A stretch of 64,000 nucleotides of DNA from Acidobacteriota bacterium. GTDB taxonomy: Bacteria > Acidobacteriota > UBA890 > WLXD01. Of this stretch, positions 13,534 through 50,828 are shown piece by piece. Under the pieces are notes generated by a model that was not told the DNA's origin, did no database searches, and saw only the letters and a list, made by a program, of their open reading frames with translations. Position numbers and translations under genes: made by a program. Positions within the stretch are counted from its first letter, which is position 1; the number at the start of each line of letters is the position of its first letter. Where the stretch lies: NCBI GenBank assembly GCA_965205505.1, contig CBDBHB010000008.1, positions 768,001-832,000 of the forward strand. The letters are read 5' to 3'.

Positions 13534-13564
13534 GCTGTACCTCCGCGGGTGCCAGTGTCCCTAG

Positions 13565-13835
13565 CAGGCCGTGGTGAAAGTGTGGTGGGTCTGGTTACGG
13601 CGAGTTGGGGCCAGATGCAAGGCGGCCTGACACTGGCGATGCCCTAGCCATCGTCGAGGAAGGCCAACGCCGCAAATGGCCCCAAATCGCCGTACCCCTT
13701 CGGGCGACAGGGGGTTGCGCGCGTTTGCTGCGTCGTTCCTCGTCAACGATGGGGTAACCATCGCCTACTCCTCTCTCCTTGCCTGCACTTCGCAAGTCCC
13801 TGTCGCCAGACCCACCACACTTTCACCACGGCCTG
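13565..13835. mobile_element. 271-bp MITE with perfect 30-bp terminal inverted repeats and CTAG target duplication
   Basis: CAGGCCGTGGTGAAAGTGTGGTGGGTCTGG at 13565-13594 and its exact reverse complement at 13806-13835. CTAG flanks both sides (13561-13564, 13836-13839). No transposase ORF inside. Confidence 0.85.
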
Positions 13836-33629: not shown

Positions 33630-34334
33630 TTACTCACCTAGTGGCCTGCGGAACTTCAGCGCGAAACGGTCGATTGTCCAGCGGCTGCCCCGGAAGCTCT
33701 GGTCGAAGTCGTCGTCAGGATTGGCGTACATCTCCGAGCGCTCTACCAGCTCGAACCCGGCCGCGGTCAGAACGTCGACCACATGCTGCTCGTTGATACG
33801 GTGGGTGCTGTCGTCGAAGCCTTCCTTCGGTGTTCGCGCATCGACAACGCCGAAGATCCCGCCCGGCTTGAGCGCGGCGAGATACGACGCATAGACCGGA
33901 CCGGTGTCGCCACGGTTCTCGATGTCGTGGATGTTCCGAACCGTGATCATCACGTCCACGCTCCCCGCCATTACGTCGGCGAAGTCCGTGAACACCTCCA
34001 CGTTTGACAGGCCAGCGGCCTCGACGCGCTCCGCAGTGCTGCCGCGACGGTCGGGACCAGCCAGTACCTGCCCGTGCTCCACTATCAGCGACAGCACATG
34101 GGTGTTGTAGCCACCTCCTGGCATCAGATCGACGACCGTCATGTCGGGCTCGACGCCAAAGAACTCGTAGAGCTCCAGAGGCTTGCTGCCGGAATCACGC
34201 TCGCGGTCTGCGTCGCTTCGCAGCGGGTCATCGAGAGCGCTCTGGCCTTGCGCCAGCCCGAGCGTCGCAGCGACGGCAAGTGCCACTACAGCGACCGTCG
34301 GCGAATGAAACTGTATACGGCTCTTCCAGAACAT
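33630..34334 (-). CDS. Secreted class I SAM-dependent methyltransferase-like protein (COG4798-type)
   Basis: Signal peptide, DRERDxxxKP, FFGV...VVDLMPGGGY, RNIHD, LKPGG, ANPDD, DRFALKFRRP. Confidence 0.8.
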   Translation of the reverse strand: MFWKSRIQFHSPTVAVVALAVAATLGLAQGQSALDDPLRSDADRERDSGSKPLELYEFFGVEPDMTVVDLMPGGGYNTHVLSLIVEHGQVLAGPDRRGSTAERVEAAGLSNVEVFTDFADVMAGSVDVMITVRNIHDIENRGDTGPVYASYLAALKPGGIFGVVDARTPKEGFDDSTHRINEQHVVDVLTAAGFELVERSEMYANPDDDFDQSFRGSRWTIDRFALKFRRPLGE

Positions 34335-34518
34335 TGCATCTGCTCCACTACGATGGGGATCGATCGAACGAGCCTATCTATCCCACACATGACATACAAC
34401 GCCAAGCGAGACCATGTGGCGGGCGACGGCGCATCGTTCACGGCGTGGCGCTGAGGCGGGCATCCAGACGCCGGAGGCGGCCGGCATCGCGCGCTCATCC
34501 AGCACGGTGGGTTTGCGC

Positions 34519-36687
34519 CTACTCGCCGATACCCCAGACGTGCCCGAGCGTGCGCACGATGAGCATCCCTTCGGTGATCGCGGGTGTGGCCCAGATCACT
34601 TCGTTCATCTCGTTGCTCGCCAGCAGCTCGTACTCCGCCCCCGCACGCACCACGTGTACGGTGCCGTCCTCGCTTGAGAAGTACAGTAGCCCGTCTGCAG
34701 CCACCGGCGAAGCGACGTAGGAACTGCCCACGCCCGCGATACGGCTGCGGTAAAGCATCTCGCCGGTGACCGCATCGTAGGCACTGAGACGACCGTTGTT
34801 GGCGTTGGTGTAGAGGATGCCGCGGTACAGCATCGGCGAGGGTATGTAGGTGCCACCGCGATTCTTGCTCCAGGCAATGTTCTCGTTGGTGTCGGAGTCG
34901 CCGCGGAGCGAGATGTCACCGCTGCCGCCGGGTCGAATGGCGTAGATCGGGCGCACCGGGGGATACCCGGCGGTGACGTATACGAGGCCGGGTCCGGTGA
35001 TCGGGGTGGCGACCACGATCTCGGAATTGGGCCCTAGCGACCACAGCTCTTCGCCGTTCCGCGGGTCGTATCCGCGAATTGTGGTGCCGTTGGTGATGAG
35101 CTCGTCGCGAGGTTGGCCGCGGTAGAGCGCCGGCGAGCCCCATGTCGAGATCTCGTCGCGCTGGGTTCTCCAGACCTCCTCGCCGGTAACGATGTCGAAC
35201 GCCGCCAGGAAGGACTACTGCTGCACGTCTGCTTGCACGATCACGGTGCCCTCGTACAGCACCGGTGAGCTGGCGTGACCCCACTGGTAGTCCGGGTCGT
35301 AGAACCAGCCGGAGTCGAGCGCGCCGAGGTCTCGCTCCCAGTCGCGGTTGCCGTCCATGCTGTAGGCGACGAGCTTGCCGACGCTACCGAACAGCACCAC
35401 CACGTGCTCGCCGTCGGTAACCGGTGTGCTGTTGGCCTGGCTGGCCTTGGGGTGACGCTTGACGCTGGGTAGGCCTTCGTGCGTGAGGTCTTCCCACAGG
35501 ACGCGACCGCTGAGCCTGTCGAGGCAGTAGGTCTTGAACTCGTGCGCTGACAGATCGTCGACCGGCGTCACGTCACCGTACAGACCGGTGCGCACGGTGT
35601 CGTCGCCGCTGCTGCTGACCGCGGTGGTAACGAACACGCGGTCGCCCCAGACGATCGGGCTGGAGTTGGCGACACCAGGAACCGGCGTCTTCCAGCGCAC
35701 GTTCGCCCCCCTCGCGACGTCCCACCTCAGCGGGGGGCCGTGGCCGTCGCCGATCCCCGATGCTCCGGGGCCGCGAAACGACGGCCACTGTCCACTGGAA
35801 GTTACTCCCGGATCCCCGCCGATGTCGGCTACGACCGGCGGCGCTGCGGCGGGCCGCCGGCCGCCTCGCATCAAGTCCGCCTCGTCCGGGTCCACGGGCT
35901 GCATCCCGAGGTCGCGCTCGCCAACCTGGAGCCGCGCGAACTCCACCACGCCGGCGCGTCCTCCGAAGCTCAGGGTGGTGGAGCCGTCGGCGCTGTCGAA
36001 CCTATCCGGCCCAGTAGCGGCGACCACGATCTCGCTGCCGTCGCTCGAGTTGACAGCAAGTCCTGAGCCACGCACCGCCACTTCAACGATGACGCCGGCG
36101 TCTTCGTCGCGGTACATCCCCACGTAGCGCTCGAGCTTCTCGGCGATGATCTCGAAGTCGCTGTCGGGCTGTGGATCGAACACCGCCGCGGCGCGTAGTG
36201 CCGCGACCGTCTCGGTGCGCTCCAGCTGCACCGCCAGCTCGACGGCGCGATCGCGTTCGGTGCGCGGCAACGGGCCGGCCGCGATCGCCACCGCCTCGAG
36301 TACCGCATCGTCGTTCTGGATGGCATTCAAGAGGGCTTCGACAGCGCCGTCGGCGCTGTGTTTGAGTAGCAATTCGGCGACGTCGGCGTGACCGTTCGAC
36401 AGCGCCCATCCCAGCGGGCTCGCACCGTAGAAGCTGTCACTACGATCGGGATCCGCGCCTCGTGCCAGCAGCAGGCGCACGATCTCGACGTTGCCGCGAT
36501 CGGCAGCGAAGAACAGCGCCGTCGATCCGTACTCGTTCACCGCGTCGACCGGCACGCCGGCCTCGAGCAGCTCGAGAACGCGCTCGATGGCGCCGTCACG
36601 CGCGGCGGCGTGCAGCGCCTCGACATCCTGGGGCGCTGTCAGCCACCCCGGGACCAGGGCGAGCAACAGCAAGGTGCGAGCCAGCAT
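34519..36687 (-). CDS. Secreted ankyrin-repeat plus PQQ-like beta-propeller fusion, interrupted by one in-frame TAG (35215-35217)
   Basis: Ankyrin repeats (GSTALFFAADRG, GASPLGWA), then WPSFRGP and SSPIVWGDRVFVT. The frame continues past the TAG as SFLAAFDIVTGEEVW to the stop at 34519. Confidence 0.8.
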
Positions 36688-36915
36688 TCCGTACTCCCCG
36701 CAAATCGACATTGGGTGGTCGGCTTCCGATCGTTCCGCGAACTTGTGACGGCATCAGGCCAGGCGGATCTCCTCCTACTCCTCCAGGCTTAACGGCCAGT
36801 CCTTCTTGACTGGGATTTCCCGAATGACCTTTGTCGAGTCACGTTCTTGGGTTTTTGTCGGTGCCAGCAGGCCAGGATTCACACACATGTCCACAGTCTT
36901 GTCGAGAGGTCCTCG

Positions 36916-36968
36916 TCTCGCGTGGTGAGAGCCGATCTATTCCGCTAGGCTGAGCAGCCTTTGCGGAG
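36916..36968. repeat. Repeat R1 copy 1 (double hairpin)
   Basis: TCTCGCGTGGTGAGAGCCGATCTATTCCGCTAGGCTGAGCAGCCTTTGCGGAG; near-identical to 41995-42049 and 48541-48586. Confidence 0.95.
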
Positions 36969-37028
36969 GTAGCAACATGGACATCATGCCGATGGCTGCG
37001 ATGGGACGTTCCCTTTGTTGTTAGTGCG

Positions 37029-37532
37029 TTGAGTCGAATCCTAGCAACCGTAACGTGCTGCTTCGCGGCAATCTGCGGCGCCCCAGCCGAAGAGTTCGAC
37101 CCTGTACGCATCGACCGCTTCGAGCACGAGATTAGGCAGTGGTGTCCTGACGGCGAGAATGTAGATATCGTCGACCAACTGTACTTTTTCGCCTGGTGCG
37201 ACGACGGATGGCCAGCCGACCTTTTCACTATCTACCTGAGGAACGACACCCTCAGCGACTTCCACGGATCGATCGCGCTGGAGTACTACGACGAGGAGGG
37301 CTACCGCGTCGACGGAGATACTCTCTCGTCCGTCATCAATAGTCATGACGATCCGAGGTTCATGTCCGGATTTCCGTGGGAGTGGGTAGAGGTAGTGGTG
37401 CCGGCACGCGAAAGAAACATCATTCAGATAATGACAATCACTGACGAAGAGACCGGAGAGACCGCGGACGAGTACATGGCGCGCAAGGGCTACGCATCCT
37501 GGGGCCTCCGGTTGAGATCGGACGAACTATGA
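37029..37532 (+). CDS. Hypothetical acidic protein (start uncertain, possibly ATG 36977 with frameshift)
   Basis: 167-aa ORF with coding-like composition. GGAGGT-n6-ATG at 36977 lies in another frame. The stop overlaps repeat R3. Confidence 0.55.
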   Translation: MSRILATVTCCFAAICGAPAEEFDPVRIDRFEHEIRQWCPDGENVDIVDQLYFFAWCDDGWPADLFTIYLRNDTLSDFHGSIALEYYDEEGYRVDGDTLSSVINSHDDPRFMSGFPWEWVEVVVPARERNIIQIMTITDEETGETADEYMARKGYASWGLRLRSDEL

Positions 37533-37567
37533 CCCCGACCACCTACCGAGCCCTCTGCCCGGGAGCC
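37529..37567 (+). repeat. Repeat R3 copy 1 (copy of the first codons of the XRE gene at 42197)
   Basis: ATGACCCCGACCACCTACC identical to 42197-42215; variants at 46081 and 47179. Confidence 0.85.
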
Positions 37568-37730
37568 ACGTGACCGACGACGAAGCAGGCCAGAAGCCCG
37601 AGCGCCTTCTGAACACGAACGACCATGGCTCCAGTTCTACTCGCGGAGGTCGTGCATCTGGGCGCTCGCCGCCCCATTGGCGTCGGTGTGTGGCTATCAA
37701 CGAGCGACGCAATCTACGATATTTAGTCTT

Positions 37731-37838
37731 TGACTATCTATTAAGAGATTGTGCTATCTATTAAGATCTTGTACTATCTATCTATAGTTTATAATATATG
37801 TTTCGCGATTTTTAGATAGTCAGATAATCTCTTAATAG
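37731..37838. repeat. AT-rich tract with three tandem 20-bp repeats and inverted partial copies
   Basis: TGACTATCTATTAAGAGATT / GTGCTATCTATTAAGATCTT / GTACTATCTATCTATAGTTT at 37731, 37751, 37771. TATAAT at 37790. TAGATAGTCA (37813) and AATCTCTTAATAG (37826) are reverse complements of parts of unit 1. Confidence 0.85.
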
Positions 37839-37844
37839 GATCTA

Positions 37845-38954
37845 ATGAGCCAAGCTATCTCTCATGCAGTCCTGATCGTCGATGACGATGCAGCTATCTG
37901 CAAGATCGTGAGCCGGACGCTCGAGGCGAACGGCTACCGCTGCGTGGTTGCCGACTCCGCCGAAGGCGCGCTCGAGTTGTTGGATCACGACGGGTTCTCG
38001 CTCGTGATCTGTGACGTCCTCATGCCGGGCTTGTCGGGGCTGGAGTTCCTGGAGCGGATTCGCTACCGCTTCCGCGAGGCGCTTCCCGTGATCATGATGA
38101 CGGGGATGGCCGACAAAAAGACCGTCGACGAGATCATCGAGAGGGGCGCGTACAACTATCTGCACAAGCCTCTGGACCTGCACGCCCTCGCGGTCAACGT
38201 GAAGCTTGCCCTCAAGCAGCGGCAGTTCAGCTTGCAGGCCGTGCGCTCCCAGAGTGCCCTCGCCGAGAAAGTTCAGGTGGCGCAGGAGGAGATCGGCTGG
38301 CGGCTGCTGCGGGCGGCGGAGTGGCGCGACGAGGCGACGGGCGCGCACGTTCAACGCGTGGGATTGGGCTCGCAGATGATGGCGCAGAAGCTCGGATGGG
38401 AGCCCCGCGCCGTCTCGGACATGAAGCTCGCGGCTGCCATGCACGACATCGGCAAGATCGGGGTTCCAGACCGGATCCTGCTGAAGCCGGGGCGGCTGAC
38501 GCGAGAGGAGTTCGAGGTCGTCAAGAGCCACACCGAGATCGGGCACAGTATTCTCGGCGGTGCCAGCTCCTCGCTGCTGATGCTAGCTGCCGAGATTGCC
38601 CTGTCGCACCATGAGAAGTGGGACGGCTCGGGGTATCCGAGGGGACTGGTGGGCGAGGAGATTCCGGAGTCCGGCCGGATCGTCGCGATCATCGATGTTT
38701 ACGACGCCCTCATTTCCGACCGTTCCTACCGCAAGGCGTTCGCTGAGGAGAAGGCCATCGAGAGTATGAGCGGATACTCAGGACAGTACTTCGACCCGTC
38801 GCTATTCGGCGTGTTTCTGGGGATCCTGCCGGAGTTTCGGGCACACAGGGCCAACGGCCGGCTGTTTTTGACGTCTCCGAGCCTAGCGCGCCCCGAGCCG
38901 AGCCCACCGCCCGAGGAACACGATGTGGCCGCAGGGCTGGGCCGGGTCGCCTGA
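37845..38954 (+). CDS. Response regulator with HD-GYP phosphodiesterase domain (RpfG-like)
   Basis: REC domain (VLIVDDD, DVLMP, KP); RDEATGAH, HDIGKIG, HHEKWDGSGYP, DVYDAL, FDP. Confidence 0.95.
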   Translation: MSQAISHAVLIVDDDAAICKIVSRTLEANGYRCVVADSAEGALELLDHDGFSLVICDVLMPGLSGLEFLERIRYRFREALPVIMMTGMADKKTVDEIIERGAYNYLHKPLDLHALAVNVKLALKQRQFSLQAVRSQSALAEKVQVAQEEIGWRLLRAAEWRDEATGAHVQRVGLGSQMMAQKLGWEPRAVSDMKLAAAMHDIGKIGVPDRILLKPGRLTREEFEVVKSHTEIGHSILGGASSSLLMLAAEIALSHHEKWDGSGYPRGLVGEEIPESGRIVAIIDVYDALISDRSYRKAFAEEKAIESMSGYSGQYFDPSLFGVFLGILPEFRAHRANGRLFLTSPSLARPEPSPPPEEHDVAAGLGRVA

Positions 38955-39047
38955 ACCCTGCGGTTGGGTGATCGGGATCGGCAGAAAAGACTGATCGTTT
39001 TCAGCCGAAGGGCGCGATCGGAATCAGCCGCGACATACGCAGGGCTG

Positions 39048-41647
39048 TCACGCTGCCTCGAGCGCCTGCCTGACGGTCTGGGCCAGCTTCTCAGGCGTGA
39101 AAGGCTTCTCGAGAAGGGGCACATCGAGATTCAGGGCGCCGTATCCGCTGATGGCCCGCTCGGAGTACCCAGTCATCAACACGACTTTCAATCTAGGCAT
39201 CGCTTGCACCATCTCCTGGTACATCGCGATGCCATCCTGGCCCGGCATGACGATGTCGGTCACGAGAAGGTCCAACTCGGGATGAACGGCCTGTAATTCG
39301 TGCGCCTCCGCCGGGCTGGAGGCCACATGTACCGAATACCCCTTTTCGATCAACACTCGCTCCGCGACGTTGCGCACTATCTCGTCATCCTCGACGAGCA
39401 GGACCGTCTCAGATCCGGCCGGCGCCAATCCTTCTTCGGGATCAACATTCGCGTTGACTGCTTGGTCGGCGCGCGGCAGGTAGATCGTGAAGGTAGAGCC
39501 TTTGCCGGGGGCAGATGTGACCGTGATGTTTCCCCCATGCTGTTTGACTATGCCGTAAGCCGTCGACAGCCCAAGCCCCGTCCCTTCGCCAACTGCCTTG
39601 GTGGTGAAGAACGGATCGAAGATTCGTTCCTTTACATGGCGGTCCATCCCGCAACCTGTGTCGGTGACCTTGATTATGGTGTAATGGTCGGAACTCAGCT
39701 CGCAGGCAACGGACGTTCCTTCGTCGAGGGCCACGCTCTCCGTCTCGATCCGCAGCTTTCCGCCGCTCGGCATGGCATCGCGGGCATTGACAACTAGGTT
39801 CAACAGCACCTGCTCGAGTTGGCCACAGTCAGCTAGAACGGTTCCAACATCTCCGCTTACAGTGATTTCCAGTTCGATGTTTCGGGGATCACTCGCCGCA
39901 GCAGGCTCGTGAGTTCTTCGATCACGACGCCCACGCGCACCGGAACCGGCTGCATGACTTGTTGGCGAGTAAACGCCAGAAGTTGCCGCGTCAGCGCCGC
40001 AGCCCGGTCAGCACCCGCACTGGCCTTGCGAAGATCTTGGGCGATCGTACTGTCTTCCGGGAGATCGGAAATCGCGAATTGTACAAAGCCAGTGATGCCG
40101 GTCAGCAGATTGTTGAAGTCATGAGCGACTCCGGCCGCGAGCTGCCCCACGGCTTCCATTTTCTGGGACTGGCGGTAGCGTGCTTCCATCCGCTTGCGAT
40201 CGGTGATGTCGCGGAATATCCCGTGGTACGCGAAAACTCGGCCGTCTGCGTCGTTCAACATCGTCGCCGTCTCCAAGCAGTCGAGTTCAGCTCCATCTTT
40301 CGTGCGCAGCTTGATCTCGAACTCCCTGACGGATCCTCGTTCCGCAATCGCATCGAGGAACCGGGTGCGTCTGAGCGGGTCGACGTACAGGTCGGATCCG
40401 GTCATCAGCATGATCTCGTCGCGCCGGTAGCCGGTCATCTCGAGCATGGCATCGTTGAGGTGGGCGAACTCGTCGCTGTCGTTGGTGACGTAGATCGCGT
40501 CCCGGCACTGGTCGAAGAGAGTCCGGTATCTCCGGTCGCTTCTCCCTTGCGCGACCTGGGCGTGCCGGCGCTCGGTCTCGAGCAGTTTCTGTTGAACTTG
40601 CGCCAAGGCGCTGAGGATGATCAGGAACACAACAACGCACGCCGCGCGCAGCGGCTCGAAAGAGACATCCAGAAAGCCCGCCAGGTAGACACTGAGGTGA
40701 ACGGCGGGCAAGGCGGTTGCGTAAAGCACCAAGGGGGCCTTGAACTGAGGTTGCTGAGGCGACGGGCTCAGCTCACCGCCTCGCACATGGTCTTGCCCAT
40801 TCCCCGGCAGCGCGTATCGGCTTATCCGTGCCGCCAGGACTATCGGCACGTAGGCGGCAAGACCGATCGGCACGTCCAACCTCAGGTCGATAAACCCCGC
40901 TGACGCGAGAAGCTGTACGAGATCGATCCCGGACCACATGCCGCAATAGGCTGCCAGCAGGCCATAAAGCAGCCTCCAGCGTGGCCTCCCACAGACGTTG
41001 CGAAGATGGAGAAGACTCGCCAGCAGTAGGATATCGAAGATCGTGTACATCATGGACGGCGATACCCAGGTGTCATACTCGTGGGCGTTCTGCGCGCTGG
41101 GAATGATGACGAAGTACATGAACAGGCCCAACGAGAAACTCAGGGTGCCGAGGATTTCGACCCGTTGACGAGAGGGGGCCGCACTCAACCGCGCCGGCAG
41201 GTGCGGGCTCCTGGAGATCGCCAGGAAGAACGCGGCGTAGAAGACCATCAGCAGACAGTCGGCAGCGATATCCCTGTGTATCGGCGATACGTCGAACAGG
41301 AGCAGTGGCACGAGTACGTAGATGATCTCGACCGCGCACCAGCAGCCGAAAGCCACGCCGAGCAACCTCCAGAACTGTCGCTCCCGCCGATGAGCGATCT
41401 TCCCCGACCGATAGACCAAGGCCACGACGCACAGGAGGCTCAGGCCAATATCTGCGTAATAGTCTGAGAAGTTCGCGAGCTGATCGCTGCCGACGATCGG
41501 CGTGAAGAACGGCACGGCGAGCAGGGCAAACACGACGACGGAGATTCGGATCCCCCAGTCGGCAACGAGCATGGCGCGCAGCCCGCGAGGCATGGTGCTC
41601 AGCCGACCTCCTTGCTCAGACGTCGGGCTTCCTTGCGTGGTTGGCAC
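39048..41647 (-). CDS. Membrane-bound PAS hybrid sensor histidine kinase (apparent single-base frameshift near 39880)
   Basis: Multi-TM N-terminus, PAS/PAC (RDITDRK), QKMEAVGQLAAGVAHDFNNLL. The next frame gives QLEQVLLNLVVNARDAM, FDPFFTTK, GTGLGL and a C-terminal REC. Adding one A to GAAAC restores PENIEL. Confidence 0.9.
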
Positions 41648-41694
41648 TGAATTCGCCTGCCAGTTGGGAATTCGCCATAGCTTGAAGTCACACA

Positions 41695-41790
41695 GTATTG
41701 TTAATACATACTATAGACTCAATATAGATTGCTATACTTGTTATTACATATTAATAATTATCAAAAGTTACTTATGATCACTTTCAATCG
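41695..41790. promoter_or_regulatory. AT-rich tract upstream of the hybrid kinase with 13-bp direct repeat
   Basis: TTGTTAATACATA (41698) and TTGTTATTACATA (41738), 40 bp apart, in strongly AT-rich sequence. Confidence 0.6.
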
Positions 41791-41970
41791 AGATCGACTA
41801 CTCCATGGGCGGTGGCATCATCCCCATCGCCTTGACCGCTGGGAGCTCACCGGCAACGACGATGAGATCCGCCAGCTGAGAGCAGTGATGTCCGCGTGCT
41901 GCCAGATACAAGCGAAGATCTTCTTCGCGGTGCTCCAACCATCCCGGGTGTGCCCCGTTGCGAAACCGCT

Positions 41971-42049
41971 GACCCCCTCGCAAATCGCCCGGCTGCTCTC
42001 ACGTGGTGAGAGCCGATCTATTCCGCTAGGCTGAGCAGCCTTTGCGGAG
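41971..42049. repeat. Repeat R2 + R1 copy 2
   Basis: GACCCCCTCGCAAATCGCCCGGCTG (R2) directly followed by CTCTCACGTGGTGAGAGCCGATCTATTCCGCTAGGCTGAGCAGCCTTTGCGGAG (R1). Confidence 0.95.
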
Positions 42050-42196
42050 ATCCGCCCCTTCCCGTTTGGTACCATCGTTCTAGCCCTCGTAGGGGTTAGA
42101 GCTCGCCGCGGTTTACGTCCCATGGCGCCCGCGGCGGGCTCGTCTATTTATGGGGAACCCGTGACCGGCGATCTGTACACCCGAGATTGAGCGACC

Positions 42197-42562
42197 ATGA
42201 CCCCGACCACCTACCAGATCCTCTACCCCGAGCGCCGTGCAGCCCAGTACATCGAGCAGCTAGTCAGGGCGAAGATGGACGAGACCGGCCTATCCCAGGC
42301 GTCACTGGCGCGCTCCTCTGGGATGGAGAACCCGCACCTCACGATGTACCAGAAAGGAGTCACCCACCCAGGCAAGACCAACCGTGCGCGGCTCGCCCGC
42401 CACTTCGGCGCCGACCTGGAGCTCCTCGAGGAGCTGATCACCGACGACAGGCTCGTGCGCTGGATGGCCAAGCATGGTAAATCGATACAGGAGACGGCGG
42501 CTTCGGTGTCGAGGTTGCGGAGGCTCCGGCGCGTCCCCGCGGGAAAGCGGAAGGTCGGGTAG
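42197..42562 (+). CDS. XRE-family helix-turn-helix regulator
   Basis: GLSQASLARSSGMENPHLTMYQKGVTHP...RLARHFG pattern. Confidence 0.75.
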   Translation: MTPTTYQILYPERRAAQYIEQLVRAKMDETGLSQASLARSSGMENPHLTMYQKGVTHPGKTNRARLARHFGADLELLEELITDDRLVRWMAKHGKSIQETAASVSRLRRLRRVPAGKRKVG

Positions 42563-42566
42563 CGGG

Positions 42567-42790
42567 ATGCTGCCTGAAGGCGTCGACTGGGTCGCGACCG
42601 CGGCGTTCTGGAAGGAGATCGTGGTTGCCGGCGCCGCAGTCGCCGCTGCCTGCATCGCATACCTTGGGCTCGCGGCGTGGAAGAAACAGCTGCATGGCCG
42701 CAGTGGCTACGAGCTAGCCAGGCGGTTGCTGCGCGCTGTCTATTCGGTTCGCGACAGGATCGTCAGAGTACGAACCCCTCTAGAAGGAGA
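42567..42790 (+). pseudogene. Truncated N-terminal-TM hypothetical protein of mobile-element type
   Basis: TM helix followed by GLAAWKKQLHGRSGYELARRLLRAVYSVRDRI. Coding character ends where the next gene's RBS (AAGGAG) begins. Confidence 0.45.
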
Positions 42791-42795
42791 TCCCG

Positions 42796-43197
42796 ATGAA
42801 AGCATTCATCACGTTCAATCGCGGCATCATGCAAATGCCCCCCCACTGGCGACTGTGGCTCGCGCTGTTGATAACCGCCAACCTGATCGTGCCGCTCTTC
42901 TTTATCGGTCGCGGGGAGGCCCAGGTTGTCATCGCGGCGCTTCTGGGAAGCATGATCCTCATGACGATCTTGACCGGGCTCACCGGCTTCACCCGCCTTT
43001 TGGGCCTCGGCCACATCTTTTGGATCCCGCTCCTCTACTTCCTTTGGACGCGGCTCGATCAGATTCCGGCCGACAGTGCGTTCGGCGTCTGGATTCGGGT
43101 TCTGATGACGCTGAACGCAGTGTCCTTGATCATCGACGCCATCGATGTCACTCGCTACATCGCTGGCGACCGAGAGGAGACGGTCGCAGGACTGTGA
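42796..43197 (+). CDS. Small integral membrane protein
   Basis: AAGGAG RBS; four hydrophobic helices; GFTRLLGLGHIFWIPL. Confidence 0.75.
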   Translation: MKAFITFNRGIMQMPPHWRLWLALLITANLIVPLFFIGRGEAQVVIAALLGSMILMTILTGLTGFTRLLGLGHIFWIPLLYFLWTRLDQIPADSAFGVWIRVLMTLNAVSLIIDAIDVTRYIAGDREETVAGL

Positions 43198-43225
43198 CCG
43201 ATCCAGTGGCCTTGATTACCGGCAC

Positions 43226-43606
43226 ATGATGAAGAAGGGATGCCTGATCGTCTTGATCCTCTTCGTGATTGCCCTCGCCGCCTTGGTCCTCTTTGTGAGT
43301 TCGGCGGCAGACCGCGGCGATCGCACCGCTGCCGGAGGCCCAGGCGAGCCTTTCGAAGCGATCACTATCATCCGTGCCAACGAGGCATCTGCCCTCGACA
43401 TTGAGGTCAACGCTTGGGAGGCGCCCTTCGGCGTCGGTCCGCTCGGACGCGGCCGCGTGCGCTTTCAATTGGTGCAGGGGACTCCAGTGCAGGTAACGCG
43501 ACGCGCCTGGCACGAGGAAGAAGAGCGCTACTACTACTTAGTCCAGCATGATGGGAGTTCCGGGTGGATACCGGCGCCGTTCGTGCAACTCCAGCAGACC
43601 CCATGA
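43226..43606 (+). CDS. Membrane-anchored protein with SH3-like C-terminus
   Basis: MMKKGCLIV + TM; GTPVQV...YYLVQHDGSSGWIP resembles bacterial SH3. Confidence 0.6.
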   Translation: MMKKGCLIVLILFVIALAALVLFVSSAADRGDRTAAGGPGEPFEAITIIRANEASALDIEVNAWEAPFGVGPLGRGRVRFQLVQGTPVQVTRRAWHEEEERYYYLVQHDGSSGWIPAPFVQLQQTP

Positions 43607-43968
43607 GAGGCTGCCGCGGCACCTTCGTTCGCCCCCTCGCCTACCCGCTCCGCCAGTTCGGCTCCTACCTCGGCGAGCTCATCGACGATCACCCCGCCTC
43701 CATGCGCACAATCGCCACCGAGCTCGGCATCACGCAGGGCACCATGAGCGGCTACCGCTGCGGTCAGTATCTCCCTCCGGATCGCGCTTCGCTAGATGCT
43801 ATCGCAGAGATCCTGGCGCCGACGAAGACCAAGGCGAAGGTCGTGCGACGAGAGCTGCTGCGGCGCTGGATCCCGGACCTGATGGATGCGCATCTGCGGG
43901 GGGCTGATGTCACGCCGGCGGAGGGGCAGCGGGCTATCGAGGATACGGCGGCGGCGCGGCGAGGGTAG
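43603..43968 (+). CDS. XRE-like helix-turn-helix protein
   Basis: FGSYLGEL...SMRTIATELGITQGTMSGYRCGQYLPP...LDAIAEIL; ATGA overlap with the upstream gene. Confidence 0.7.
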   Translation: MRGCRGTFVRPLAYPLRQFGSYLGELIDDHPASMRTIATELGITQGTMSGYRCGQYLPPDRASLDAIAEILAPTKTKAKVVRRELLRRWIPDLMDAHLRGADVTPAEGQRAIEDTAAARRG

Positions 43969-44149
43969 ATCGGCCAACAGCGCGCCAGCCCCCAGCCCCG
44001 GGCCGCTCCCCTTTACGTCCAATGGGACCAAGGCCAGCGCGCTCTTGGCCGCTCCATCTGAATAGACGTCCGGACCTTGTCGAAGGTTCCGTCACCAACG
44101 GACGACGTGTGATGCAGCTGACAGGCGCGCCGCGGGCTGGAACCTATCT

Positions 44150-44236
44150 GCGCGCCCACTTGTCGGTGCTGACGTCACGCCAGAGGAGGCTCGGCGGGCG
44201 ATTCGCGATACGGCGGTGGCGCGGCGGCGTGGGTAG
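44150..44236 (+). pseudogene. Degenerate copy of the 3' end of the 43603-43968 gene
   Basis: GCTGACGTCACGCCAGAGGAGGCTCGGCGGGCGATTCGCGATACGGCG...GGGTAG encodes ADVTPEEARRAIRDTAVARRRG*, versus ADVTPAEGQRAIEDTAAARRG*. Confidence 0.7.
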
Positions 44237-44537
44237 AGGAACAGGCAACAGCGCGTCGGAGCCCCAGGAACATCGCAGCGACGTCGAAGTCCGCTAGCCA
44301 CTACCTAGAGGTGTGCTGGGGAGTCTAAAATGTCGGGTTACCCCTTGGCGCGGGACGAGAGTAGCCGACACCGTCGCTGCCGGGCAGCCACGGTCGCGTC
44401 GATGCCTGGCCTGAGATCACAGCGGCGAAGCGCGTCCCGCGCTGGGGGGCTTCGCTTGTTCGTGGGGTCTTTGGACGACTCTCACGGGCGACGGGATCCG
44501 CCGGCTGTTAATCAACCATCCAAGGGAGGTGCTTCGG

Positions 44538-45143
44538 ATGAACGCAGACAGCATCAAGAAGGGCATCTACGGCGGCCTGGCCGGAGGCGTGGTGTTCGGA
44601 GCCATGATGGGAATGATGGGGATGCTACCGATGATCGGCAGCATGGTGGGGTCTCCATCGGCTTTCGCAGGCTTTCTCCTCCACATGGTCAACAGTGCCA
44701 TCATCGGAGCCGCGTTTGGCATCGTCTTGGGCTCGATGGTGAGCGGGATGGGAAACGGCTTGGGGTATGGACTCGGCTACGGCGTGATCTGGTGGTTGTT
44801 GGGCCCGCTCACGCTCATGCCCTTGTTCATGGGAATGGGCATGGGTGTCAACTGGAACCTAGAGGCCGCCGGAAACATGATGCCCAGCCTCATGGGTCAT
44901 CTGGTCTACGGCGCAATCCTGGGCGCTGTCTACGCCTGGATGGGCACAGGACAACGTGCCGATGGGAGTTCTGATTCCGCTGACTTCGAGCCCCTGGATA
45001 GCGGGGGTCCGATTCCGTTGGAGAACGAAGATCAAGCAGCGCCGGAGGAGGCCGCCTCGAGGGACGGCGAGGGCACGGAAACTGGCAATGGGGCCGAGCG
45101 ACCGAGCGGGCCTAGAACGGCGACGAATAACATCCTGGACTAG
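44538..45143 (+). CDS. Gly/Met-rich four-TM membrane protein with two conserved-looking His
   Basis: GGAGG RBS; GGLAGGVVFGAMM...LLHMVNS...SLMGHLVYG. Confidence 0.75.
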   Translation: MNADSIKKGIYGGLAGGVVFGAMMGMMGMLPMIGSMVGSPSAFAGFLLHMVNSAIIGAAFGIVLGSMVSGMGNGLGYGLGYGVIWWLLGPLTLMPLFMGMGMGVNWNLEAAGNMMPSLMGHLVYGAILGAVYAWMGTGQRADGSSDSADFEPLDSGGPIPLENEDQAAPEEAASRDGEGTETGNGAERPSGPRTATNNILD

Positions 45144-45256
45144 GTAGCCAGCGAGGCTTCGGCGGCTACGGCGCGTCCCCGCGGGAAAACGGAGGGTGGG
45201 ATGAGACTAGACCGGCTCCATTATCAAAGAGTGGAACCGGCGCCCTAACTGCTACG

Positions 45257-45544
45257 ATGTCGTCAGCCCCCCAGCAGCCCGACGGAGTGCCAGTGCCCCG
45301 CGCCCGTTTGAACCGCGTTCGTGCTGAGCAACGAGCCTTTGATTCGCAGATTGATGATCTGCTCGACAAGCACGCCGGCGAGTTCGTAGTCTTCCACGAC
45401 GAGCAGCCTGTAGCCTTCTATCCGACCCATGCGGAAGCCTACGCTGACGCGCTCAAAGTTTATGGCGCTGAGGGTGTCTTCCTCGTATCTCAGGTGAAGA
45501 AGCGCTCCCCGCGCTTGTCACAGCGGCTGCGCGCCCACACGTAG
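45257..45544 (+). CDS. DUF5678-like small protein
   Basis: EQRAF...LLDKHAGEFVVFHDEQPVAFYPTHAEAY...G...FLVSQV pattern. Confidence 0.55.
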   Translation: MSSAPQQPDGVPVPRARLNRVRAEQRAFDSQIDDLLDKHAGEFVVFHDEQPVAFYPTHAEAYADALKVYGAEGVFLVSQVKKRSPRLSQRLRAHT

Positions 45545-45615
45545 GCGCGCGGCGGACGCGGGTGGCGGTTCGGCAGATCCGCATAATGCTCGATGCTCGA
45601 TCTGATCTGCCTCCC

Positions 45616-45644
45616 GACCCCCCCCCTCGCAAATCGCCCGGCTG
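45616..45644. repeat. Repeat R2 copy (C9 tract), without R1
   Basis: GA-C9-TCGCAAATCGCCCGGCTG, matching 41971-41995. Confidence 0.85.
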
Positions 45645-45751
45645 TGAGCTTTGCTAGTGACATAGGAAATTTGTTCCGCTTTGGCCACGGCTGCACGCAA
45701 GCTCAAACGTGCCGCGAGTCGCGCCCTGCGCGCCAAAGGTAGGGCCCAACA

Positions 45752-46084
45752 ATGTACAACCCCGGCTTCGTCGATGGCCTGCACTACTCAACCTACATCC
45801 TGGAGTATCGCCGTCTGAAGCGAGAGGGCGAGCTTGATCGAGCAGAAAAGCTCCTGATCCGAATCGTCGGCGCAACGGAGGACGAGGCCAGGGCCAACGG
45901 CTGGGATGTATCGCCCACTTACTACGAGCAGCTGGCCATCATCTACCGGGAAAAGAAGCAGCCGTCCGACGAGCTCGCGATACTCGAGCGGTACGAGCAA
46001 CAAACACGAGCCCAACACACTCCTTCCGCGAGACTCGCCAAGCGCCTAGCAGGGCTGCGCGCCAAGATCCGTAAGAGCGAGTGA
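45752..46084 (+). CDS. Hypothetical TPR-like helical protein, paralog 1
   Basis: PGFVDGLHYSTY...YYEQLAIIYREKKQPSDELAILERYE; strongly similar to 47208-47555. Confidence 0.75.
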   Translation: MYNPGFVDGLHYSTYILEYRRLKREGELDRAEKLLIRIVGATEDEARANGWDVSPTYYEQLAIIYREKKQPSDELAILERYEQQTRAQHTPSARLAKRLAGLRAKIRKSE

Positions 46085-46116
46085 CCCCGACCACCAACCG
46101 AGTCCTCTGCCCCGGA
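46081..46116 (+). repeat. Repeat R3 copy 3
   Basis: GTGACCCCGACCACCAACCGAGTCCTCTGCCCCGG overlapping the upstream TGA. Confidence 0.8.
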
Positions 46117-46357
46117 GAGGAGGACAGGTGAGCGAACGCCGTGTGTGACGGTCTGAAGAATTGCCCCGACAGCTTTGTTCGCATGCTGGGCGTGGGCATC
46201 TATTTGCTCGAACGCCAGTGGGCTCGCGAGCCAAGAGCGGGCGGGGCCCGTGCCGCCGTGGAAACAAACCGCACGATACGGTATGTATATAGAATCGCTC
46301 TGTAGCGGTTCTTGGACTTCCAGTTCTGCCGCGAGGCCGCAACTACGGAGGTTCCCC

Positions 46358-47098
46358 ATGAAGTCCTGCCTCCTGCTCGTCATCGTCGCCTTCGCCCTCT
46401 CCGGCTGCGTGCCCGCAACCGACTCATCGGAATCCGAGCCGGACGTCATCGTCGACCCCGCTGGGACCATCGGCATCACGTACCCGAACCTCGACGTAGC
46501 GACGCCCGAGGTTGTGTTCGACAACGAGTACTTGCTCGTCCAGCAGCTGCGTAGCCAGCCCGGAGTCTGGAGCGGCGAGCACGGTCACGCCGGCAACCAG
46601 TTCGGCGTTTCCTTTGGTGCGGCAACGACGCAGCTAATCGTGGGCGATGAGCAGACGACGAACACGGCCGAAGCTGGTGACTTCTTTTGGGTCGACGCCG
46701 TGGAGTCACACAATCACCGGCAAATCAGCGAGGAACCACGCTACCTCTTCGTTGCGACCATCAAGCGATCCCCGAGCTACGCAATAGGTGTCGACCCAGC
46801 CACGGTCACCTTCGAGGGATATCCTAATGATCCGGGCGAGCTCGTACTCGATAACGACATGGCGATCGTCCGGCGCTTCGACATCGAGCCCGAGTACTGG
46901 GCCGGGTCGCACAGTCACGCCGGCAACGAGCTCACGATCATGATCACGGATGCCACCGCGAAAGTCGTTGTCGGCGAAGAAGAGAGCGACGTGAGCTTCG
47001 AGACGCGCGATATCATCTGGACGGACGCTGGCGTCCTGCACGACCACGGCAACACGGGCGACTCGACGACGAGCTTCTACGTGATCAAGCTACGGTAG
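46358..47098 (+). CDS. Bicupin lipoprotein
   Basis: GGAGG RBS, lipobox LSGC, two cupin repeats (HGHAGN...HNH and HSHAGN...HDH). Confidence 0.8.
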   Translation: MKSCLLLVIVAFALSGCVPATDSSESEPDVIVDPAGTIGITYPNLDVATPEVVFDNEYLLVQQLRSQPGVWSGEHGHAGNQFGVSFGAATTQLIVGDEQTTNTAEAGDFFWVDAVESHNHRQISEEPRYLFVATIKRSPSYAIGVDPATVTFEGYPNDPGELVLDNDMAIVRRFDIEPEYWAGSHSHAGNELTIMITDATAKVVVGEEESDVSFETRDIIWTDAGVLHDHGNTGDSTTSFYVIKLR

Positions 47099-47148
47099 CG
47101 TCATCTCCGGTGTTCTCGACGATCGGCGACAGCTCGACCGTAGCCACG

Positions 47149-47228
47149 ATGCCGCCGCGGCACCCGTTCGCCCCTGATATGACCCCCACGACCTACCAAG
47201 TCCTCCAGTGAGAGGCCGCCGAGGCGCG
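47149..47228 (+). repeat. Concatenated R4-R3-R4 gene-start fragments
   Basis: GCCGCGGCACCCGTTCGCCCC (cf. 43612-43635), ATGACCCCCACGACCTACCAAGTCCTC (47179), GTGAGAGGCCGCCGAGGC (47208). Confidence 0.7.
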
Positions 47229-47555
47229 AGCCCACCGGGCTTCGTCGACGGTCGGCACTACTCGGTCTACGTGGTGGAGGTTCGTCGCCTCAAGCGGGTG
47301 GGCGACCTCGATGGTGCGAAGGAGCTTCTCCTGCGCCTAGTGGACGCCACAGAGGCTGAGGCATCCGCCCGAGGCGAAGGCTGGGTTGCTCCGTGGTACT
47401 ACGAGCAGCTTGCGATCATCTACCGGAAGAAGAAGCAGCCAGCCGACGAGCTCGCGATCCTCGAGCGGTACGAACGACAAGCGGGGGCCCTTGGGATGAT
47501 TTCAGAGAGGCTGGCCAAGCGCCTGGCCGGCCTGCGAGCCAAGGCGGACCAATGA
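47208..47555 (+). CDS. Hypothetical TPR-like helical protein, paralog 2
   Basis: PGFVDGRHYSVY...WYYEQLAIIYRKKKQPADELAILERYE. Confidence 0.75.
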   Translation: MRGRRGASPPGFVDGRHYSVYVVEVRRLKRVGDLDGAKELLLRLVDATEAEASARGEGWVAPWYYEQLAIIYRKKKQPADELAILERYERQAGALGMISERLAKRLAGLRAKADQ

Positions 47556-47764
47556 GAGGCCGCCGCAGCACCCTAAAGATGGACCTTATGTCAGGACAGG
47601 TCAGCTATCGCTGCAAGTGCAGGCGTATCGTCCGGGTTCACGCCTCGGACCTAGCGGCCGGCTTGGTCGACTACTGCGGCTGCGGTCGGCTGCGAATCGA
47701 CCTCAGTGAGTCTGAGGTCAACGGTTACCGACAGATGGCCGGTCTCCCGAAGCTCGAGGAGTAG
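47552..47764 (+). CDS. Small Cys-containing (CxC...CxC) hypothetical protein
   Basis: ATGA coupling with the upstream gene; YRCKC...YCGCG; starts with the R4 motif (MRGRR). Confidence 0.5.
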   Translation: MRGRRSTLKMDLMSGQVSYRCKCRRIVRVHASDLAAGLVDYCGCGRLRIDLSESEVNGYRQMAGLPKLEE

Positions 47765-47954
47765 GCTGTGAAGACGCTCGAGATCATCGACGGCGACACC
47801 CTCGTCGTTCGAGACGAGGACGGGGCCGAGCTCGGCCGGGGGGAGGCGGGGGGCTAGGAGTCTCAAGCTGCGAGGTGATCATTGGGATTTTTCAAACACG
47901 TACAGAGCGTAGCGCCCTACGGCCCCAATTTGGAACGCAAGGTAGAGCGGAGGC

Positions 47955-48224
47955 ATGATGCCGTTCACCAAACAGCAATATGAAGCCGCCATCGAGAAAA
48001 TGGAAGTTACCATCGACCGCCTACGCGACGAGGCGCGGGAGGCAGTGAGCAAACTAGCCGACGCCTTGATGGCCCGCGACGTGGATATCGGCCTGCTGGA
48101 AGCATGCACCGAGAAGGCAGCGACGCTGGTGCGGGCGGTGCGGGCAAGCGAGGACACCCACGCCAGGCTCGAACATGCTATCGACCGCGGCCTCGCCGCC
48201 AGACAAGAGAGCGGTCCTAAGTGA
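47955..48224 (+). CDS. Small helical hypothetical protein
   Basis: GGAGG before ATG; 89-aa coiled-coil-like ORF. Confidence 0.55.
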   Translation: MMPFTKQQYEAAIEKMEVTIDRLRDEAREAVSKLADALMARDVDIGLLEACTEKAATLVRAVRASEDTHARLEHAIDRGLAARQESGPK

Positions 48225-48517
48225 CCGATCCGAAGAGCGAGCAACTGTGGACGGCCCAGGACGCAGGGAAATATCCGCGGCCGCCGCCTCCTCCTCTTCC
48301 TCCTCCACCTCCGCCGGCGCCGCCCGATCGGCGATGGCCCGCGACTACTCGAGCACTACCAGGAATAGTGGGACAAGCTACGGGTAGAACTTAGTTCCCC
48401 GACATCAGGTCGAGCGGCGCGTCGCCTCGGCCTCGAGCTTCAGCAGAGCCTCGTCTTCGGTCAACCGCATCCGCACGTCGACCGTGGCTTCCATCCGGCC
48501 GACTTCTCCTTGCGCGT

Positions 48518-48586
48518 CCCCCCTCGCAAACCGGCTGCGCGCTCTCGCGTGGTGAGAGCCGATCTATTCCGCTAGGCTGAGCAGCC
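48518..48586. repeat. Degenerate R2 + R1 copy 3 (3' end of R1 missing)
   Basis: C6-TCGCAAACCGGCTG then GCTCTCGCGTGGTGAGAGCCGATCTATTCCGCTAGGCTGAGCAGCC. Confidence 0.9.
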
Positions 48587-48678
48587 CACTGCCGTGCTTA
48601 GACACTCCCCGGATCGGGCGGTCGCAGCGCAGGGACTCAGCACGTCAGACTCGATCCTCAAAGAAGGGAGACATCAGC

Positions 48679-49182
48679 ATGAAGAGAGCCGCCCTGATCG
48701 CGCTCTTGAGCGCCTTTTCCAGCACCTCGCCGGCTCCAGAGGCAGGAACGCTCGCAGACGGCTTGGTCGGAAGCTGGCGTCTGATATCGGCCGAGGGGCA
48801 CGGCACCGACGGTAGCGTAACTTATCAATATGGGCCGGAGCCGCTCGGGCGCGTAATGTTCGACGATGGCGGCCGCATGTCCATCCACCTCGTGAACCCG
48901 AGCCGACGGCCCTTTGCATCAGCCGACTTCCTGCGCCCCACGCCTGAGGAACGCACGGAAGCCTCCGACGGTTATTTCGGCTACTTCGGCAGCTACACGG
49001 TGGATGAGAGTGCAGAGGTTGTGACGTTTCACGTGGAAGGCGCGGCGTACCCGAACTACATCGGTACAGCTCAGCGGCGGCTCTTCGTACTGGAGGGGGA
49101 CCGGCTGACTCTTCGCACGCCACCGGAACGCGCCGGGGGTGCGGACATCACCTATGTTGTGACTTGGGAACGGGAAGGCTGA
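48679..49182 (+). CDS. Secreted lipocalin-like domain protein (Lipocalin_5)
   Basis: LVGSWRLIS, YFGYFGSYTVD, VTFHVEGAAYPNYIGTAQRR, TWER. Confidence 0.85.
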   Translation: MKRAALIALLSAFSSTSPAPEAGTLADGLVGSWRLISAEGHGTDGSVTYQYGPEPLGRVMFDDGGRMSIHLVNPSRRPFASADFLRPTPEERTEASDGYFGYFGSYTVDESAEVVTFHVEGAAYPNYIGTAQRRLFVLEGDRLTLRTPPERAGGADITYVVTWEREG

Positions 49183-49299
49183 CTCGACAGCGACTGCCGG
49201 CGGTGAGCCGCGGGAGCTTCTTCGCGTGCCGCGGCCCAAGGGAGACGTCGAGTTCGACCGATCACGACCGCTTGACACTCGGGAGCGCAGTCGAAAAGC

Positions 49300-49403
49300 G
49301 GGGACCGCCTGACTCGTTCGCACTCCACCGAAACGCGCCGGCGGTGCGAACATCACCTATGCTGTGACTTGGGAGCGGGAAGGCTGACTCGGCAACGACC
49401 GCC
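49300..49403 (+). repeat. Diverged duplicate of the lipocalin gene 3' end
   Basis: Matches 49096-49198 with about 10 substitutions and a 1-nt insertion. Confidence 0.9.
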
Positions 49404-49432
49404 TGGCAATCTCTTCGGTAGACATTGGGAGG

Positions 49433-50821
49433 TTGGGACTGGGATCATCCCGTCCGAGAACCAGCCGACGGCGAAGAGAGGACGTCATCAGAGCCAGCGC
49501 AGCAACTACCGTCCTGTTGGTGGCGATTGCCGCCGTCGCGACCGGAGCCGTTTCGACCAACAGCCACGCTCTGACGGCAGCAATCCGTGAACCGCTCGAG
49601 CGCGGACTGCATCACCAGCTGGTCGCTGACCGGTCGGCATTCGAGGCGGTGCTCGCCAATCCCGCCGTCCGCGACATGCTCACCAGCGTACGTGAGGGTG
49701 AGGTGGCGACCATCGACGACCAGGTCGCCCTTTGTGAGATCCCGGCACCACCGTTCAACGAACAAGAGCGCGCAACAGACTTCGCTCGTCGCCTGCGCGA
49801 GGCCGGTATCCAGAGTGTTCGGGCCGATGCAGTCGGCAACGTGATCGGCGAATGGGTGGGCTCGGAACCGGGTCCCCTGGTCGTTCTGTCCGCGCACCTC
49901 GACACTGTGTTTCCGCCGGGCACGGACGTCGCCGTGACCCGCGACGACCATTTGCTGAAGGGACCCGGCATCGTCGACGACTGTCGCGGGCTGGCGGTAG
50001 TGCTCGCGGTCGCAAGAGCATGGGCGGGAAGCGGGCTGCGGCCGCGCGGACGGCTCATATTCGTCGCCACGGTCGGTGAGGAAGGTGCCGGAAACCTGCG
50101 GGGCGTGCGTCATCTTTTCGAGGTCGAGCTGCCGGACCAGATCGATGCGTTCATCTCCGTCGACGGCGCCGGCAGCGCCGTCACCCACGGGGCGGTTGGA
50201 AGCCATCGCTACAAGGTCACCTACCGCGGGCCGGGTGGGCACAGCTTCGGGGCTTTCGGCATGCCCAACCCGATGCACGCACTGGGGCGGGCAATTGCCA
50301 AGATCGCCGACTTCCAGGTTCCAACAGAGCCCAAGGTCACGTTCAGCGTCGGGATCCTGGAAGGTGGGACTTCGGTCAACTCGATCCCGTTCTCGGCCGC
50401 CATGTCCGTCGACATGCGCTCCCTCGACGTCAACGCGCTCGAGGAGATCGACTCTCAGTTCCGCGCCGCGCTGCAGCAGGCCCTCGACGAAGAGAACACT
50501 CGCTGGGACAGCGACGTCGACCTCTCCTACGACATCGAGGTCATCGGCATCCGCCCCGCTGGGCTGCAGCCGGAGAGCGCCCCGATCGTGTGGGCGGCCC
50601 TTGCGACGGCGCGGGCAGTGGGCATCGATGCGCGGCTCAACAGCGCCAGCACCGACTCCAACATCCCGATCAGCCTGGGAATTCCGGCAGTAACCATCGA
50701 TGGCGGAGGCCACGGGACCGGTGCCCACTCGCCATCCGTGGAGACCTTCGATACGACCGACAGCCATAGGGGGTCGCAATGGGCCCTCTTGCTGACGCTG
50801 ACACTTGCCGGTGTCGAGTAG
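49433..50821 (+). CDS. M20/M25/M40 family metallopeptidase, probably secreted
   Basis: SAHLDTVF, GIVDD, GEEG, GGHS, GGTSVN, STDSN, GAHS; start codon uncertain. Confidence 0.9.
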   Translation: MGLGSSRPRTSRRRREDVIRASAATTVLLVAIAAVATGAVSTNSHALTAAIREPLERGLHHQLVADRSAFEAVLANPAVRDMLTSVREGEVATIDDQVALCEIPAPPFNEQERATDFARRLREAGIQSVRADAVGNVIGEWVGSEPGPLVVLSAHLDTVFPPGTDVAVTRDDHLLKGPGIVDDCRGLAVVLAVARAWAGSGLRPRGRLIFVATVGEEGAGNLRGVRHLFEVELPDQIDAFISVDGAGSAVTHGAVGSHRYKVTYRGPGGHSFGAFGMPNPMHALGRAIAKIADFQVPTEPKVTFSVGILEGGTSVNSIPFSAAMSVDMRSLDVNALEEIDSQFRAALQQALDEENTRWDSDVDLSYDIEVIGIRPAGLQPESAPIVWAALATARAVGIDARLNSASTDSNIPISLGIPAVTIDGGGHGTGAHSPSVETFDTTDSHRGSQWALLLTLTLAGVE

Positions 50822-50828
50822 AGGCACA

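Follow-up and report, generated by a model that had tools for sequence, protein, structure and literature searches.

Here we describe R1, a repeat of about 50 bp found in three co-oriented copies in an accessory region of an uncultured Acidobacteriota bacterium (GTDB lineage UBA890; WLXD01), within a stretch of 64,000 nucleotides (hereafter the window) that corresponds to positions 768,001 to 832,000 of contig CBDBHB010000008.1, assembly GCA_965205505.1. What we observe are copies of R1 with reassorted flanks, other linkers and, at two sites, att-type ends that lie away from the repeat. On balance, we favour reading R1 as a conserved noncoding linker of a family of small modules in two sister species, and likely as one of several short patches of homology through which general homologous recombination exchanges modules, inside and among decayed islands that were likely inserted by integrases. 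A first-pass annotation, made by a model from the letters alone, had already placed the copies at 36916, 41995 and 48541; all three are present in the same orientation, with start-to-start distances of 5081 and 6546 bp.

The genome of the window (G000) was compared with that of a sister species (G004) and with three further related genomes (G001-G003); L numbers (e.g., L001, L051) denote the R1-bearing or island loci compared. A genome-wide search gave 11 copies in G000, of which one is a contig-overlap duplicate, leaving 10 at six loci, and 15 non-redundant copies at eight loci in G004. Contig overlaps inflate copy counts in both genomes (end of C9 with start of C8 and start of C9 with C7 in G000; C13 with C6 in G004). 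One further copy lies in a metagenome contig (L090), the only one recovered in the metagenome scan, and the resulting set of 26 copies (10, 15 and 1) is the basis for the counts of flanks, pairs and attC cores given below. Misassembly as the source of the copies, a possibility raised by the first-pass annotation, is unlikely. In the best-matching read run, contigs join each copy to unique flanks, with zero base differences in the pieces listed, and a run of another study contains the same flanks. Because the contigs of both join the copies to these flanks, the repeat is real; the contigs of the best-matching run end within R1, and it is the genome assembly, together with the synteny of the outer flanks, that gives the order across each copy.

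Sorted by flank, the 26 copies make up 20 left and 19 right classes, in agreement with the proposal that R1 lies at junctions with variable cargo. None of the seven pairs of copies with the same upstream module shares the downstream one (0.28 expected if both were independent) and, conversely, the upstream module is shared by none of the 13 pairs with a common downstream module. As a control, both flanks are common to 14 of the 55 same-left pairs at a second linker family, MTPT, and to three of eight across a gene for a 110-aa protein. Neither differs from R1 (Fisher p 0.33 for MTPT and 0.2 for the gene; the pairs are not independent and power is low). These data support R1 as an exchange point, at or near the repeat, which is not unique, since other linkers and a coding gene reassort too. 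Cargo also differs at one and the same site: the orthologous loci L001 (G000) and L055 (G004) carry different DNA upstream of R1, a TonB-receptor gene that is located elsewhere in G004 and an unrelated 536-aa open reading frame (ORF), respectively. The left flank of copy 1, in turn, is common to a G004 copy (L051:10244).

The two units of 5.1 and 6.5 kb bounded by R1, which had been taken for cassettes, never recur as units in G000, in 18 G004 loci or in L090; the longest match elsewhere is 213 bp for the first and 939 bp for the second. Modules that recur at other loci, in other orders, make up 38% of the stretch 36900-48600, and breakpoints cluster at R1, at a C-rich upstream module (Lmod; also at 45619, without R1), at the four MTPT copies and at gene ends. 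Around R1 the shared sequence has ragged ends, scattered over about 20 nt on the left side and falling at several points on the right side, and in several cases the copies themselves are cut off at differing points. Moreover, in two runs of other studies a contig tracks the island as far as 38207, inside the HD-domain gene, and continues into 70 nt of other sequence, this exit point being 1.2 kb from the nearest R1. Low cover between 38.5 and 43.5 kb in runs X5 and X6 was not counted as evidence, and the joints back to 45619 in these runs may be circles or other loci.

On its minus strand, the MTPT linker (37529, 42197, 46081 and 47179) resembles the 5′ half of a tRNA-Met (C8:354627-354701), the match stopping at the anticodon. 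For five of six copies, only 0-1 of 300 shuffles scored as high, and a chance 50-mer of the island scored equal (1 of 500 windows higher). That MTPT could be a decayed tRNA-type att site is only a lead.

R1 has a narrow distribution. It was found in two of the 401 genomes of the phylum searched (G000 and G004) and not in the other 399; a scan of genome contigs matched the sister species alone, and viral contigs gave no R1 match. A single 18-mer match to Lmod in viral contigs, without R1, was judged to be chance. Clusters of two to four copies occur, with spacings of 0.35-6.5 kb and a single orientation in each cluster, and the 10 copies of G000 all stand in module mosaics or island remnants. 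The family of the 110-aa cargo protein has five matches in G000 and 11 in G004 (two being contig-overlap duplicates) and is absent from the 24 other genomes of the class searched, that is, two of 26 carry it, the same two that carry R1. Viral contigs hold no relative of this gene, and an atlas search with the protein returned unnamed clusters only, with weak TPR-like neighbours.

At the sequence level, R1 is indeed better conserved than the other long repeats of the window, matching over 44 bp at 43/44, 44/44 and 43/44 positions versus 86-90% for repeats D3 and D5. Its central 30 nt are 95.8% identical between the two species, versus about 90% for the flanking host DNA. In the alignment, the columns without variation begin in the hairpin 1 loop, take in the linker and reach into the 5′ arm of hairpin 2. 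The two-hairpin fold proposed by the first-pass annotation holds in full for copy 2 alone (54 nt; DNA z -5.1), copies 1 and 3 being incomplete: the stretches folded gave z -2.1 for copy 1, without the first two stem bases, and z -0.5 for copy 3, without the outer 3′ arm of hairpin 2. The argument that the internal A/G variant preserves pairing fails beyond the window, this position being unpaired in 18 of the 26 copies. Paired cells amount to 84.0%, versus 82.8% in shuffles, and two-sided changes occur in three cells only, of which, by reading of the alignment, one is truly compensatory (L056) and two come from truncated copies. There is almost no covariation, and the hairpin structure is not the conserved feature. 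Furthermore, no Rfam covariance model matches R1 at E up to 5 in 34000-51000. The repeat is not a tRNA end, as previously stated, and its candidacy as a tRNA remnant was rejected, with 141 of 200 shuffles scoring equally high.

As regards a possible regulatory role, the GGAGGT reported before an ATG downstream of copy 1 is present; the ATG opens a mere 15-codon stub of a gene that has 51-65 codons and is whole at other loci. According to a simple in-house gene caller, the next gene is co-oriented with R1 in 24 of 26 cases. The previous gene is also mostly co-oriented (20 of 26), and the orientation therefore reflects the arrays rather than a promoter. A -10-like hexamer is visible by eye, and a terminator scan, which gave no match, led us to reject R1 as an intrinsic terminator. 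A function as promoter or leader would be plausible but unsupported.

Contrary to the earlier delimitation, R1 does not mark the edges of the island. Synteny of the window with G001-G004 runs as far as 34408-34473 and resumes at 49449-49670, which places copy 1 at 2.4 kb inside the left edge and copy 3 about 0.9 kb inside the right one. The accessory region takes the place of a minus-strand gene of about 555 aa that G001-G003 carry, carboxylesterase-like by reading of its translation; at the same position G004 has a miniature inverted-repeat transposable element (MITE) and the module that follows R1 at another G000 locus. Ends are visible at other loci. In L051 (G004), an 8-bp core within the first codons of a glycosyltransferase-like gene, whole in G000, is present twice and encloses an array of about 7.2 kb that contains three R1 copies; a replacement gene start is supplied by the array's right end. 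At L001 and L055 the enclosing core is 9 bp long, again in two copies, and belongs to the start of a GST gene which G003 and G002 have uninterrupted. Insertion by a tyrosine integrase usually leaves such a trace, in which a short core is duplicated and the target gene restored. Where they are visible, the att-type ends of R1 arrays are 8-9-bp integrase-type duplications in gene starts, and not R1.

Phage or satellite genes occur about 2-5 kb from two G004 arrays; the neighbours of L049 are integrases, an excisionase and DnaB, and those of L052 a replication initiator, DnaC and a repressor. A motif of about 25 bp recurs near the ends of gene-targeting islands (L051:15123-15150, L055:7808-7835, L052:12191, L090:1698-1721, and G000 C8:852817, C8:1197368 and C9:1222037), followed in several copies by short direct repeats, and is a candidate integrase arm site; in L051 and L055 it is placed close to the right end.

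Altogether, the following scenario could be drawn. A family of integrative elements or phage satellites would have come into the ancestor common to G000 and G004, with insertions at several sites, and most of its members would later have lost the integrase. Their accessory regions, in which R1, Lmod and MTPT link small co-oriented genes, would have recombined among themselves and acquired genes of the host. The central 30 bp or so of R1 would have been kept either by the binding of a protein or of RNA polymerase, probably as part of a promoter or leader, or by homogenisation through exchange. The window island would be one such mosaic, whose own att ends were lost.

Several observations weigh against this interpretation. 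Stretches of 44-80 bp are short for RecA-type exchange. The top strand of R1 is the C-rich (lagging) strand at six of six G000 loci and six of eight G004 loci, that is, 11 of 13 after merging the orthologous pair, a bias that plain homologous recombination does not predict. Lmod starts at a fairly sharp C-run in many differing flanks, which a site-specific enzyme could explain. In addition, att-type ends were recognized at only two independent sites, and the empty-site comparisons of L005, L006, L054 and the window revealed none; the end zones of the window island share no direct repeat of 9 nt or more; and no intact parent element was found with R1 beside its own integrase. Regarding a regulatory contribution to the maintenance of the core, none of the three window copies matches a consensus sigma-70 promoter.

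A different explanation would be that a recombinase acts in trans on R1, together with Lmod, as its dedicated site, the arrays being integron-like with a non-attC site. The complete reassortment of flanks, the co-oriented clusters and cargo, the conserved 30-bp core and the strand bias would all fit, as would the 35 tyrosine-recombinase matches in G000; nevertheless, we regard it as unlikely. The shared sequence ends raggedly, covariation is almost absent, other linkers reassort too, and the strand bias drops to 11 of 15 when two opposite-facing, module-only G000 loci are added. The distance from R1 to the nearest tyrosine or serine recombinase match is 15-395 kb, versus a median of 54.5 kb for random positions, so that R1 is no nearer to such genes than chance. 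As noted earlier, no recombinase lies between the copies: none was found with Pfam among the 17 island ORFs scanned, and the nearest tyrosine-recombinase match is 16.7 kb beyond copy 3. Serine recombinases, also present in G002 and G003, both without R1, and reverse transcriptase, with two matches in G000 and none in G004, were rejected as partners.

The comparison with integrons is instructive in this regard. As far as the cited account goes, attC sites consist of RYYYAAC and GTTRRRY cores enclosing a palindrome of 57-141 bp (PMC3053210), and clusters of attC sites without an integrase are named CALINs. R1 arrays resemble them in having small co-oriented genes, a recurring structured repeat in between and no enzyme in cis, and differ in that R1 has no such cores (0 of 26 copies), is not one long palindrome, ends raggedly and has several genes between copies. 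G000 does carry a true integron (C8:1206900-1215200) with an IntI above the TIGR02249 cut-off and at least five canonical attC sites, recovered by a scan similar to the one that gave none at R1. Its IntI is at C8:1214363, at a distance of about 400 kb; in G004 the best match is partial and has a stop, and G003 has a close IntI-like match, yet no R1. With units that do not recur, ragged ends, a conserved core in the linker and inner arms and not in the hairpins, no attC cores, no match in the HUH families searched and the visible att-type ends lying elsewhere, the structured att-, attC- or HUH-type capture site that was first suggested is not supported. It is quite unlikely that R1/Lmod is the site of an undescribed, non-integron cassette system, read in trans by a host or satellite recombinase that shuffles and captures host genes in the chromosomal arrays of one Acidobacteriota lineage; in such a system, recognition of single-stranded DNA at the replication fork would be possible because of the strand bias.

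R1 could also be what is left of the parent element, a passive vestige of an arm, replication or packaging site, the varied flanks having arisen by converging deletions and not by exchanges. Several copies end at differing points, many cargo genes are broken, and in L055 the motif recurring near element ends adjoins a truncated R1 at a distance of about 30 bp or less. However, one upstream module can stand before various shared downstream modules, and one downstream module behind various upstream ones, which deletion alone would not easily produce, and the core is better conserved than the adjoining DNA; we consider this explanation improbable.

Finally, a dispersed repeat similar to a MITE or to repetitive extragenic palindromic (REP) elements, moved alone by an HUH or DDE transposase, is very improbable: R1 is short, hairpin-forming, intergenic and species-restricted, but it has only 10 copies in G000, all in mosaics or remnants of islands and with one orientation in every cluster, it lacks sharp ends, no Y1 transposase was found in G000, the real MITEs of this genome exceed 30 copies and have inverted ends, and the IS110 copy examined adjoins another repeat, while no R1 lies around the single IS110 of G004. 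HUH elements (IS91/ISCR, IS200/605 and REP with their associated RAYT transposases) have one sharp end with a fixed target tetranucleotide. At R1 the ends are ragged, the Lmod C-run varies in length and there is no fixed neighbour. Searches covered four HUH families: Y2 was absent from G000 and G004 and found in G005 (positive control), Y1 was absent from G000, the genome searched for it, and TrwC and Relaxase (MOBP-type) were absent from G000 and G004. IS110 was also rejected as a partner, with 30 matches in G000, one in G004 and none in G001-G003, since the copies lie as described; the distribution that it shares with R1 is what closest kinship of G000 and G004 would give. Separately, the IS110 expansion in G000 is recent (30 sites, e.g., C9:1830289-1831745, with copies 99% identical), and a second repeat family of about 260 bp lies directly beside the copy examined and beside several more.

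The features of the accessory region are collected in Table 1.

Table 1. Features of the accessory region, in window coordinates.
Feature	Position	Strand	Remarks
Accessory region, true extent	34474..49448	.	From synteny with G001-G004
Ankyrin/PQQ-propeller gene	34519..36711	-	Left of copy 1, within accessory region; internal stop 35215-35217
R1 copy 1	36916..36968	+	Without Lmod and first two hairpin-1 stem bases
Ribosome-binding site and truncated start of small membrane-protein gene	36964..37022	+	Whole at other loci
MTPT linker, copy 1 of 4	37529..37566	+	Second linker family; repeat D7
Receiver + HD-domain gene	37845..38954	+	Unit 1 cargo
Hybrid histidine kinase	39048..41647	-	Unit 1 cargo; split by frameshift near 39.8 kb
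Lmod joined to copy 2	41973..41994	+	C-rich upstream module; begins at C-run of variable length
R1 copy 2	41995..42049	+	Sole full double-hairpin copy in window
Leader module + MTPT linker	42154..42235	+	Downstream of R1 copy 2
XRE-type helix-turn-helix (HTH) gene	42197-42562	+	Opened by leader module + MTPT linker after copy 2
Small HTH-like module	43603..43968	+	Recurs at several other R1 loci
Membrane-protein module	44434..45194	+	99.6% identical to G000 C9:464125-464885, with different neighbours there
Lmod + diverged R1-like middle (R1′)	45619..45679	+	Additional (fourth) linker of this family, overlooked in the first-pass annotation
110-aa hypothetical protein, copy a	45752..46084	+	Family in G000 and G004
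MTPT linker	46081..46117	+	After first 110-aa gene
Cupin-domain protein	46358..47098	+	Unit 2 cargo
MTPT linker	47179..47218	+	Before second 110-aa gene
110-aa hypothetical protein, copy b	47208..47555	+	Repeats D2, D3
Variant Lmod joined to copy 3	48519..48540	+	From repeat comparison
R1 copy 3	48541..48586	+	Stops after hairpin-2 inner stem
Lipocalin-like gene	48679..49403	+	Right of copy 3, within accessory region; duplicated 3′ end (D5)

The ankyrin/PQQ gene has homologues with 76-77% DNA identity at other loci in G001-G003, and contigs of runs X4 and X6 have a sense codon in place of its internal stop, for which reason the break looks strain-specific. The 3′ end of the lipocalin-like gene (49096-49403), at the right edge of the accessory region, is duplicated over about 100 bp at 89% identity, 205 bp apart. 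Elsewhere in the window, at 13561-13839, stands a MITE with 47-nt inverted ends, which has dozens of genome copies and occurs at several variable G004 sites. Gene-start stubs of Ser/Thr-kinase-like type are common in and around the islands (L003, L008, L049, L051, L062, L065 and L090).

Among the systems described so far, the closest in behaviour are the promoter early stem-loop (PeSL) elements of T4-type phages. In the parts of the literature cited here, PeSLs are presented as short intergenic stem-loop repeats that precede, in plastic regions, small genes whose function is unknown, and at which modules are exchanged, a dedicated recombinase not being identified; a consensus sigma-70 promoter, tested promoter and terminator activity, some 50 copies per lytic phage genome and mini-circles are also described (PMC2839356, PMC4122927). 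R1 is likewise intergenic, precedes small genes of unknown function in plastic regions and shows module exchange at the repeat. Unlike PeSLs, it lacks a consensus promoter, resides in islands of a bacterial chromosome and belongs to a set of several unrelated linkers; its sites are chromosomal, and the viral contigs searched are devoid of it.

Other known categories fit in part. A cis-mobilizable element (CIME), as defined in the section cited, is a decayed integrative element that keeps attL and attR and no longer has the genes for its integration and transfer (PMC5704250). The integrase-less cargo between att-type ends at L051 and at L001/L055 resembles this description (PMC5704250), whereas R1 is internal and not an att site, att ends cannot be recognised in the window island, and internal module shuffling lies outside the definition as given there (PMC5704250). 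Putative mobile promoters, in turn, are near-identical noncoding DNA segments upstream of unrelated genes, with an unknown mechanism of mobility, and are recognized by at least 80% identity over at least 50 nt in a -150 to -50 window (PMC3575422). R1 shows 53-nt matches at 96-98% before unrelated genes, a figure obtained without applying the exact -150 to -50 window; it differs in being tied to a family of island modules, and its promoter activity is putative.

The interest of these findings is modest, as they concern two uncultured species and many broken genes, with no phenotype. If a dedicated recombinase were found, the interest would be much greater, since R1 arrays would constitute a second gene-cassette system beside integrons. 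In 2010, the PeSL authors stated, in the passage cited, that linker-mediated module shuffling was unknown in cells (PMC2839356). If the reading of R1 as a homology patch holds, it would be a chromosomal, bacterial case of the shuffling seen in T4-type phages, and decayed islands could go on reshuffling small genes and those of the host with no need of an integrase.

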